Of a stretch of 64,000 bases of DNA, positions 24,501-27,500 are shown one piece after another. Where the stretch lies: assembly GCF_051903065.1 (NCBI RefSeq), contig NZ_CP178438.1; one strand, 5' to 3'. Numbering within the stretch: position 1 is the stretch's first letter; every line of letters starts with the position of its first letter. This stretch comes from Escherichia coli. GTDB lineage: Bacteria; Pseudomonadota; Gammaproteobacteria; Enterobacterales; Enterobacteriaceae. A program made the position numbers.

Positions 24501-27500
24501 TGAAGAATTAGTCCCGGCGGATGCGCCGCTGTGGCGAACAATCAATACGCCACAGGGTAAAGGCGTTGTTAACTTAGGGGCGAGAGATATCAGGGTTTAC
24601 AGCGACGGTGATTTTCCACACTGGACAGGGTGGAAACTGGTGAACGATGATGCGGACACCAACAGCCAGTGCAATTCACCAACAATCCTGTGTACAACCC
24701 GCAATGACCTAAGTCGGATGATTTGTCATTTTCCGCTAGAATGGGACAGCACCACCGTGGAATCACGGTTTGAGTGGCTGAAATCACCCAATGACGTATT
24801 GAGTAAGCCGATGACAGAGCCTGACTTGGATTTGCTGATAGAACACTGTAAGGCGCTTTGTTTGGTAGATAATCCGTTACCTGCCAGGCGTGTATGGCAT
24901 TTTGATCCCAGGCAGTTTATTGCACATTTCAGGAAATGTGGGTGGTTAGGAGAAAATGATATTATAAGTGTGGTAAGACGTTATCAAAATGCTTATCCCA
25001 TGACATCAGAACTTACAAGACCATTAAGTAAAGACACTCTAATTGAGCGGATTACTAGCCAAGGACAAAATAGCAGTGGTGAGGTGATAAGACCTGCAGG
25101 GTTGAAAAATGAACTGTCAAAGTCACTAAGGAAGTACTTAATTACAACCCCATTGCGGATTGCGCATTATTTCGGTCAGATGGCGAGAGAAACAGGCAGA
25201 TTTGCGTCTTTTATAGAGAATGGTGATTCGAGTTATTTTGATATGTATGAGCCAGGAACAGAACAGGGACTTAAGCTTGGAAATAATGTTGTTGGTGATG
25301 GTGCAAGATTTAAAGGCAGAGGTACCATACATCTAACTGGTCGTGAGAATTATAGAAATTATAGAAATTATGGAAAGTATAGAAATCCGTCAGATGATGA
25401 TTTTTTTACTACAGAACCCAATAACCAACTCCCAGTTGAAAATGCCTATTTTTCTTGCGATGCCGGGGGATACTTTTGGGCAAGTAAGCAAAAATACATA
25501 ATGGTAAGCCATCGATTGACACCTAGTGGTAGTTTAGGCGTTAATTATTGGGCGGATAAAGGATGTAGTTTGTCAGATGCCAGAGAAGTTACACGGCGAA
25601 TAAACCCAGCAGCAGATGGCTTCGATTTAGTGCGTTGGCCAGCATTTGAGCATTCTTGGTATGTATTGAATGATGAAATAACACCTCCACTTAATTACAT
25701 AAGGATTGTTTAAAACAATGAATTTTAAAAAAACAATAATCATTTCGGTAGGTTTGATATTTATTTCATTCTCTTTTGTGGCAAAGTGCTCTCAACTCAA
25801 AAATTTGAATAATTACTCAGTGATGCTTTGTGGAAAAGTGTCAAATAATATCCTGGATGATATTGGTGGTTATAAAGAAAGAGATAAAAAATCCGAAATG
25901 GTAGATTTACTTATATTAATTAGTAATGACGAGCCTAACGGTGTTTCTGAGACCAAAGTGATTTCTAATGGTAAAATATATTTTAAGGGGGAAAGTACGA
26001 TGAACTTGGATGCCTCATTCATTATGACAATAAATGGTGGAGTTCATACTGACACTGTCACTTATATATCAAAGAAGAATAAAATTATCGGGGGCTACTT
26101 TTATAATAATGAGAGTAAAACTGATAAGCTTAAGGAAGTATATATCTCAAACACAGGAACTGTATATCGGTAATGACTCCAACTTATTGATAGTGTTTTA
26201 TGTTCAGATAATGCCCGATGACTTTGTCATGCAGCTCCACCGATTTTGAGAACGACAGCGACTTCCGTCCCAGCCGTGCCAGGTGCTGCCTCAGATTCAG
26301 GTTATGCCGCTCAATTCGCTGCGTATATCGCTTGCTGATTACGTGCAGCTTTCCCTTCAGGCGGGATTCATACAGCGGCCAGCCATCCGTCATCCATATC
26401 ACCACGTCAAAGGGTGACAGCAGGCTCATAAGACGCCCCAGCGTCGCCATAGTGCGTTCACCGAATACGTGCGCAACAACCGTCTTCCGGAGCCTGTCAT
26501 ACGCGTAAAACAGCCAGCGCTGGCGCGATTTAGCCCCGACATAGCCCCACTGTTCGTCCATTTCCGCGCAGACGATGACGTCACTGCCCGGCTGTATGCG
26601 CGAGGTTACCGACTGCGGCCTGAGTTTTTTAAGTGACGTAAAATCGTGTTGAGGCCAACGCCCATAATGCGGGCTGTTGCCCGGCATCCAACGCCATTCA
26701 TGGCCATATCAATGATTTTCTGGTGCGTACCGGGTTGAGAAGCGGTGTAAGTGAACTGCAGTTGCCATGTTTTACGGCAGTGAGAGCAGAGATAGCGCTG
26801 ATGTCCGGCGGTGCTTTTGCCGTTACGCACCACCCCGTCAGTAGCTGAACAGGAGGGACAGCTGATAGAAACAGAAGCCACTGGAGCACCTCAAAAACAC
26901 CATCATACACTAAATCAGTAAGTTGGCAGCATCACCCATATTAGGAATCTGGGAAAGAACAAGGTGCGCCGCTTTTTTTGTACTAAATAATTCGCATTTT
27001 AGTCACGGCAGAGAAGAAATCCGTCTTCATATTGTTTGCGATGTTCCTGATGAACTTATTGATTTCACGTTTGAATGGAAAGGGCTGAAGAAATTATGCG
27101 TGGCAGTCTCCTTTCGGTCCATAATAGCAGAACAAAAGAAAGAGCCAGAAATGACGGTCAGATATTATATCAGTTCTGCTGATTTAACCGCAGAGAAGTT
27201 CGCCACAGCAATCCGAAACCACTGGCACGTGGAGAATAAGCTGCACTGGCGTCTGGACGTGGTAATGAATGAAGACGACTGCAAAATAAGAAGAGGAAAT
27301 GCAGCAGAATTATTTTCAGGGATACGGCACATTGCTATTAATATTTTGACGAATGATAAGGTATTCAAGGCAGGGTTAAGACGTAAGATGCGAAAAGCAG
27401 CCATGGACAGAAACTACCTGGCGTCAGTCCTTGCGGGGAGAAGGCTTTCGTAATCTTGCCCTGGCATTATTGTCGTAAAAACGCATTACCGGACACACGA

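Follow-up and report, generated by a model that had tools for sequence, protein, structure and literature searches.

This report concerns a short tandem array of 9-bp units in a gene for a putative type VI secretion system (T6SS) effector, found in a 64,000-nucleotide stretch of the Escherichia coli contig NZ_CP178438.1 (assembly GCF_051903065.1), referred to below as the window. The array lies in the part of the gene that encodes a C-terminal domain related to GH19 chitinases and lysozymes. It probably reflects one recent in-frame duplication of 9 bp, neutral to mildly deleterious in its effect, and not a hypervariable tract. The features on which this account is built are as follows.

23632 to 25713, plus strand: T6SS effector gene (693 aa, WP_226156858.1), in which about 470 aa of WHIX-like N-terminal sequence precede a GH19-like toxin domain at the C-terminus.
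25348 to 25386, plus strand: tandem array of 4.3 units of 9 bp, encoding NYR-NYR-NYG-KYR-N, supported by Tandem Repeats Finder (TRF) and by shuffled sequences.
25348 to 25356, plus strand: extra NYR unit, absent from the majority allele, supported by alignments A1 and A3 and by the tables of single-nucleotide polymorphisms (SNPs) and indels; since the neighbouring copy has the same sequence, it could be placed anywhere within 25348-25371.

An initial annotation of the window had described a 9-bp repeat encoding NYR-NYR-NYG-KYR immediately after the block GRGTIHLTGRE, and both a reading of the sequence and the TRF call bear this out. Positions 25348-25383 read AATTATAGA AATTATAGA AATTATGGA AAGTATAGA and are followed by AAT, in codon register within a 695-aa open reading frame (ORF) at 23626-25713 (the RefSeq start is at 23632). 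TRF reported the array with a period of 9, 4.3 copies, 86% matches and a score of 64. This exceeds chance expectation: 2 of 200 dinucleotide-preserving shuffles of the whole window reached a score of at least 64, as did 2 of 500 shuffles of the effector gene, and no other TRF array in the window has more than 2.2 copies. The signal is owed mostly to one extra unit. The common three-unit allele has a TRF score of 46 (the usual threshold is 50), no array is found by TRF in the Buttiauxella ortholog, which reads NYKNYGKYR, and the only residues unique to the window in alignment A3 are N90, Y91 and R92. With the extra unit, the allele contains 24 bp of perfect period-9 sequence.

Uniform copy number among homologs, which the initial annotation had named as the finding that would refute it, is not what was seen: copy number varies among strains, by exactly one unit. 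The full gene is carried by 19 of 5426 complete E. coli genomes, with three units in 16 and four in the remaining 3; the test region spans 605 bases in the former and 614 in the latter, and the 9-bp gap in alignment A1 is exactly one AATTATAGA unit. Between the flanks CATCTAACTGGTCGTGAG and AATCCGTCAGATG, three units would correspond to 27 nt and four to 36 nt. All homologs from other genera have the three-unit length (16 in alignment A2 and 58 in alignment A3), so that the fourth unit is, on this comparison, the derived state; the three-unit length is also seen throughout the 31 distinct GH19-type C-termini in the family defined by the N-terminal region. An artefact of assembly or sequencing is ruled out by the presence of four units in three complete genomes, in many independent assemblies and in three genomic contexts. 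In these contexts the effector gene is followed by an intact immunity gene and then pptA, by an intact immunity gene and then a second PAAR-VgrG pair, or by an immunity gene truncated by IS1.

The longer allele is also tied to a single haplotype. Two private SNPs, at 24751 (A374T in RefSeq numbering) and 24826 (synonymous), are common to the four-unit alleles among the 15 alleles compared with the window, and two divergent three-unit haplotypes, with about 20 SNPs in the same table, still have three units. A 90% cluster in a collection of 15 billion proteins has 382 members; of the 15 that are listed, 14 span the repeat segment, where each of them reads NYRNYGKYR or NYRNYRNYGKYR. By exact look-up in this collection, the four-unit T374 allele is present under two annotated starts (P0073, 40 contigs; P0207, 34 contigs), a further four-unit protein on the T374/V haplotype (P0086) is found in 1 contig, and the three-unit allele on the T374 background is found in 20 contigs. 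Four units are confined to the T374/V haplotype in the look-up, where four-unit alleles designed on either A374 background had no exact match, nor did two-unit and five-unit alleles designed on both main backgrounds. A metagenome scan with a variable-gap pattern yielded two contigs, both with three units, which are too few to add much. The four-unit allele is a minority lineage, making up about 10-15% of the sampled alleles, and is stably carried in at least three genomic contexts. Its restriction to one haplotype, together with the failure to find a two-unit or five-unit allele, argues for one recent duplication and against a hypervariable locus.

The initial annotation had raised the prospect of repeated expansion and contraction by slippage, and this part of it is not supported. 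A slippage-prone contingency tract with frequent switching of copy number would be consistent with the finding of three and four units on haplotypes otherwise identical over 2.7 kb, and with the 24-bp perfect stretch that the four-unit allele now contains. However, just two states occur across the 19 complete genomes, the 15 listed cluster members, 16 extra contigs and the 2 metagenome contigs; four units occur on one haplotype, the divergent three-unit haplotypes never changed length, length is fixed in other genera, and the designed alleles with two or five units are absent. Steps of 9 bp would give no on/off switching, since they stay in frame. Two perfect units are also far fewer than are present in known contingency loci. 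The contingency-locus reading was rejected on the grounds of the two states, the one four-unit haplotype and the absent designs, and we regard it as quite improbable.

The position of the extra unit within the protein can be judged from the domain that contains it. Four features are needed here.

25081 to 25710, plus strand: GH19 (lysozyme/chitinase-like) domain as modelled, 210 aa, supported by AlphaFold2 (predicted local distance difference test, pLDDT, 85-88), Foldseek and profile comparison.
25189 to 25191, plus strand: Glu, domain residue E37, equivalent to barley Glu67 (general acid) by hhalign and nearly invariant in alignments A3 and A4.
25216 to 25218, plus strand: Glu, domain residue E46, equivalent to barley Glu89 (general base) by hhalign and nearly invariant in alignments A3 and A4.
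25336 to 25338, plus strand: Thr, domain residue T86, equivalent to barley Ser120 (positions the catalytic water) by hhalign and invariant in the family.

That the domain is GH19-like, as first proposed, is upheld by sequence, profile and fold searches of the PDB, which agree. A phmmer search with the C-terminal 249 aa found the GH19-type endolysins PWe2 (E = 3.9e-10), 9HQW ('Endolysin A') and SPN1S. A profile of 59 homologs matched 41 GH19 chains in the PDB, including TseP and, at E = 4.8e-13, barley chitinase 2BAA. When the AlphaFold2 model of the domain (pLDDT 88) was compared with the PDB using Foldseek, the top 19 matches were all GH19 endolysins or chitinases, and hhalign aligned the family profile with barley chitinase at a probability of 98.4%; the barley sequence used for this was checked against the published numbering. 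Glyco_hydro_19 (PF00182) is carried by distant homologs of the toxin domain, while hmmscan of the full effector reported no PF00182 at E <= 0.01, Peptidase_M23 being the sole report, and an NCBIfam scan of the effector gave no match. The domain in the window belongs to a divergent subfamily. From its GH19 membership, it would be predicted to hydrolyse beta-1,4 glycosidic bonds of peptidoglycan or chitin.

In barley chitinase, Glu67 is the acid and Glu89 the base, the residue at position 120 (Ser or Thr) positions the catalytic water, and Gln118 and Asn124 are key to GH19 activity (PMC2976769). The equivalents E37, E46 and T86 are invariant or nearly so among the 59 homologs; by hhalign, H84 corresponds to Gln118, N90 to Asn124 and Y91 to Tyr125. 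The tract does adjoin the active site, as had been noted: it starts four residues after the Thr equivalent to Ser120, and its first Asn-Tyr pair is the equivalent of Asn124-Tyr125.

The description of this segment as a loop was not confirmed. In the AlphaFold2 model of the three-unit allele, RENYRNYGKYR (residues 88-98) forms one confident alpha-helix, with a pLDDT of about 93 for the block. The family pattern is GRxNYxxYxxY(R/K), with spacing that is fixed in 31 distinct C-terminal variants. The modelled helix and the fixed spacing together indicate that the segment is a conserved helix start and not a loop, and the 'repeat' of the three-unit allele is in essence the conserved NYxxYxxY(R/K) helix motif. 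In the four-unit model the helix shrinks to residues 94-101, TGRENYRN is modelled as coil, and the pLDDT of the block falls to 81-83. From this comparison, which covered secondary structure and pLDDT, the extra NYR is predicted to disturb the helix start locally.

Such a disturbance could be more than mildly harmful. If the extra NYR alters the spacing between the Thr that positions the catalytic water and the equivalents of Asn124 and Tyr125, or alters the helix behind them, it may cripple the GH19 toxin, a change that the lineage would tolerate or favour and that would later permit a working immunity gene to be lost, as in the IS1-truncated copy of the window. Two further features bear on this alternative.

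25718 to 26173, plus strand: putative immunity gene, 151 aa, with a hydrophobic, signal-peptide-like N-terminus.
26184 to 26880, minus strand: IS1A-like element, which truncates the immunity gene.

In keeping with attenuation, the insertion falls at the Asn124 equivalent, among residues of a kind that matter for activity (PMC2976769); the first helical turns are gone from the four-unit model, with the accompanying fall in local pLDDT; and no other member of the family tolerates a change of length at the site. The window and its close relatives also have an immunity gene truncated by IS1. The normal immunity gene encodes 167 aa, and in the window copy IS1 replaces the last 17 codons, so that the conserved C-terminus HINIESVSNDKCLDKFK (17 residues, including a Cys conserved in the Buttiauxella homolog) is swapped for a single Arg. 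However, this truncation is seen only in a subset of four-unit strains; many others (ECNB21-M121, L022, L023, L027 and L029) keep both the intact 167-aa immunity gene and an intact VgrG, and there is no further gene decay on the four-unit haplotype. Because the insert duplicates its neighbour, both local contexts, TGRE-NYR and NYR-NYGKYR, are preserved, and the outcome could be no more than a helix lengthened by nearly a turn. Outright pseudogenisation is argued against by the integrity of VgrG, by that of the immunity gene in most four-unit strains and by the lack of further decay, and attenuation by the insertion seems to us unlikely, though it is the most serious of the alternatives.

A single slippage duplication of little consequence is the account that we prefer. 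The ancestral TGRE-NYRNYGKYR would have been the conserved N-terminal part of the GH19 helix, not a true repeat, in which the NYR, NYG and KYR codons of E. coli are similar enough to allow a slip of one unit. The A374T haplotype would have arisen first, with three units, and one very recent slippage duplication on T374, between the near-identical neighbours AATTATAGA and AATTATGGA, would then have given rise to the 693-aa allele, in which an additional Asn-Tyr-Arg separates the Thr from the main part of the helix. The four-unit allele may subsequently have reached a small number of backgrounds, in one of which the IS1 that truncates the downstream gene was gained afterwards. Slippage is the most likely cause of the duplication, and its effect on the muramidase- or chitinase-like activity is probably neutral to mildly deleterious rather than adaptive.

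Several considerations weigh against this account. Both states are found on an otherwise identical haplotype: eight three-unit T374 contigs match the four-unit allele at all linked sites except the 9-bp unit, with a private SNP in two of them. A second event, such as a reversion from four units to three, is thus possible, as is some ongoing instability of the perfect 24-bp period-9 stretch. Reading covered 40 of the 382 cluster members, and exact look-up finds designed backgrounds only, so that rare alleles with two or five units on other backgrounds could have escaped. The position of the insertion argues against trivial neutrality, and AlphaFold2 is unreliable for the effects of small insertions.

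The insertion might instead be functional. Immunity proteins of peptidoglycan hydrolase effectors commonly block the active-site cleft. By lengthening the segment from the Thr to the Asn124 and Tyr125 equivalents, beside the substrate groove, the extra NYR could shift substrate preference or recognition by the immunity protein, and the effector might then evade, at least in part, the cognate or orphan immunity genes of other E. coli. In favour of such an escape, at least 80% of the immunity gene is present in 33 of 5426 complete genomes, as against 19 with the effector, and fragments are present in about 119 more; the immunity genes without an effector are orphan immunity genes and recombination scars. 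The spread of the four-unit allele to three genomic contexts would also be in line with adaptive variation. On the other side, the immunity protein WP_001009642.1 is identical beside four-unit and three-unit effectors, which shows no co-variation; a four-unit strain would have no defence against its kin should the old immunity protein no longer work; and the allele is still in the minority. Adaptive change is a very doubtful reading; if it were true, a single step of slippage would have diversified a T6SS toxin at its active site in nature.

A last alternative places the effect on transcription. The minus-strand reading of every AATTATAGA unit is TCTATAATT, with TATAAT inside it, and the duplication would create an antisense sigma-70-like promoter within the AT-rich toxin gene. 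The candidate site, TTTCCA-16 nt-TATAAT, runs from 25376 to 25349 on the minus strand and agrees with the consensus at 10 of 12 positions, a consensus match only; it arises only with the extra unit, the hexamers being 7 nt apart in the three-unit allele. Nevertheless, AT-rich genes are full of such matches, the three promoter-like sites in the region equal the expectation from shuffles (3.1 +/- 2.1), and there is neither an antisense ORF nor a known RNA downstream. We give this idea hardly any credence.

The remainder of the effector has been annotated in a way that the evidence does not support. RefSeq names WP_226156858.1 an 'M23 family metallopeptidase', while the score of Pfam Peptidase_M23 (PF01551) on the effector, 23.5 bits, is under the gathering cut-off of 28.7, and homologs score 18.8-27.2 bits. 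The supposed HxxxD motif of M23 reads HGGVH (within WHGGVH), and a phmmer search of the PDB with the N-terminal 189 aa gave no M23 structure, just chance-level matches to nitrite reductase. On these three grounds the M23 name looks doubtful. The motif itself is as follows.

23749 to 23766, plus strand: WHGGVH (WHxxxH) motif, residues 40-45 of the RefSeq protein, inside the sub-threshold Pfam M23 match.

Of 119 N-terminal homologs, 118 have WHGG[IVAL]H, and in 112 it is at position 41. The WHIX domain, a secretion domain of T6SS effectors, is defined by a WHxxxH motif; its first region spans residues 31-126 of the reference protein, and the C-terminal cargo most often joined to it is a chitinase-like/GH19 domain (Fridman et al., PLoS Biol 2025, PMC12135965). 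The N-terminal 473 aa have 741 relatives in Enterobacterales, about 680-790 aa long. Identity to a Buttiauxella paralog is 73% and 65% in the N-terminal regions and 25% in the C-terminal domain; a conserved N-terminus joined to a divergent C-terminus is, at the level of sequence, the pattern of polymorphic toxins. The protein looks like a WHIX-type T6SS effector with a GH19 toxin domain.

Between yncG and pptA there is a small island that holds the effector gene, with the order PAAR, VgrG, effector, small ORF, IS1 and ISAs1 remnant. Annotation was taken by way of the chromosome record of E. coli 23CRST027, which is 99.988% identical to the window over about 50 kb. Two genes of the island precede the effector.

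21031 to 21315, plus strand: gene for a PAAR protein, from the RefSeq annotation of the near-identical record.
21334 to 23481, plus strand: gene for the VgrG spike directly upstream of the effector (TIGR03361 at 596 bits; Pfam Phage_GPD).

The guanine-cytosine (GC) content is 57% in VgrG, 42.7% in the effector gene and 30.7% in the immunity gene, as compared with 49.6% for the window; this strong step within 21031-26173 points to an acquisition of the effector-immunity cassette separate from that of VgrG. In seven three-unit complete genomes that were fetched (loci L001 and L008-L013), the annotation gives a frameshift in the VgrG gene upstream of the effector, and one of these, ES5, has a frameshifted effector as well. 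The VgrG of another genome, AHM8C212RI, is both frameshifted and shortened, with an adjoining IS2. VgrG is intact in the four-unit strains. In part of the population, decay of the island seems to be under way.

Remnants of the cassette are more widespread. The last 234 bp of the effector gene, which begin downstream of the repeat, are kept alone in many E. coli, including CFT073, Nissle 1917, ABU 83972 and ATCC 25922; the remnant was seen in 134 of 5426 E. coli genomes (for example, FDAARGOS_144, L016, and CFT073, L017, positions 4001-4740). It lies behind a different VgrG with an M35-like effector; the immunity gene that comes after it is either nearly full or cut down to a fragment of 163 bp. 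In Buttiauxella sp. WJP83 (L019, 1355-5546), a full-length effector of 690 aa, which has a different GH19-type C-terminus and a 167-aa partner of its own, precedes a 5'-truncated copy of 344 aa with a matching 168-aa partner. The C-terminus of this truncated copy is 79% identical to the E. coli toxin domain over the 249-aa query (80-81% in alignments A2-A4), and the layout is that of an 'orphan toxin module plus immunity', like the arrays of Rhs and contact-dependent inhibition (CDI) systems.

Two other repeats in the window were reported by TRF. One, a 24-bp periodic array at 23017-23062 (1.9 copies, score 57), lies in the C-terminal part of VgrG and fits the gp5-like beta-helix repeats found there by Pfam. 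The other, a 29-bp unit present twice at 49228-49286, has the highest TRF score in the window (67) and lies between yddM, which encodes a HigA-family antitoxin, and adhP.

The three-unit and four-unit T374 alleles differ only by a three-residue insertion beside catalytic residues and so form a natural test pair. The pair bears on how much change of length is tolerated by the conserved 'TGRxNY' helix of GH19 enzymes, and the finding bears on whether small slippage events feed the diversification of effectors and their immunity proteins. In other respects the array is a microduplication polymorphism of an ordinary kind, in an effector of a known class, and the practical gain is a better annotation of a protein named 'M23 metallopeptidase' in RefSeq.

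Among known systems, the closest likeness is to the WHIX effectors (PMC12135965). The gene in the window is likewise found directly behind PAAR and VgrG and is followed by a small gene with a signal-peptide-like N-terminus; the predicted protein has WHxxxH at about residue 41, within the range of the first WHIX region, an N-terminus of about 470 aa that is conserved across Enterobacterales, a variable C-terminus, and a C-terminal domain that is likewise GH19-like and putatively targets peptidoglycan. The likeness is one of motif and gene layout; the reference protein of the class is WP_005373349.1 of Vibrio alginolyticus. The E. coli effector accessions do not appear in the portions of the supplementary data of that paper that were available, and the paper makes no mention of the three-residue insertion of the window allele. 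A second relative is TseP of Aeromonas dhakensis, a dual amidase-lysozyme T6SS effector (PMC11893102, PDB 8XCL). TseP also has a C-terminal GH19-like lysozyme domain, joined to an N-terminal region that is apparently different from that of the window effector. The family profile matches 8XCL at E = 1.2e-32 and the structure is Foldseek match 11, with about 14% identity to the window domain in the structural alignment.

The array resembles the contingency repeats of bacterial surface and virulence genes in having a unit that is a multiple of three and a copy number that varies among strains. It differs from them in having two alleles, apparently from one event, and two perfect units, and in lying inside a folded catalytic domain, not a disordered repeat region. 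The domain itself shares its fold with GH19 endolysins and chitinases (PWe2, 9MS7; SPN1S, 4OK7; Streptomyces ChiC, 1WVU; barley, 2BAA), with Foldseek TM values of 0.68/0.78 to 9MS7. It has the two catalytic Glu residues, here 9 residues apart, and the GRGxIQLT motif with the equivalent of Ser/Thr120, followed by Asn-Tyr at the positions of Asn124 and Tyr125. It differs from these enzymes in its fusion to a T6SS delivery domain, in having His in place of Gln118 and, in the allele of the window, in a three-residue insertion at a site where every other sampled member of the family has the same length.

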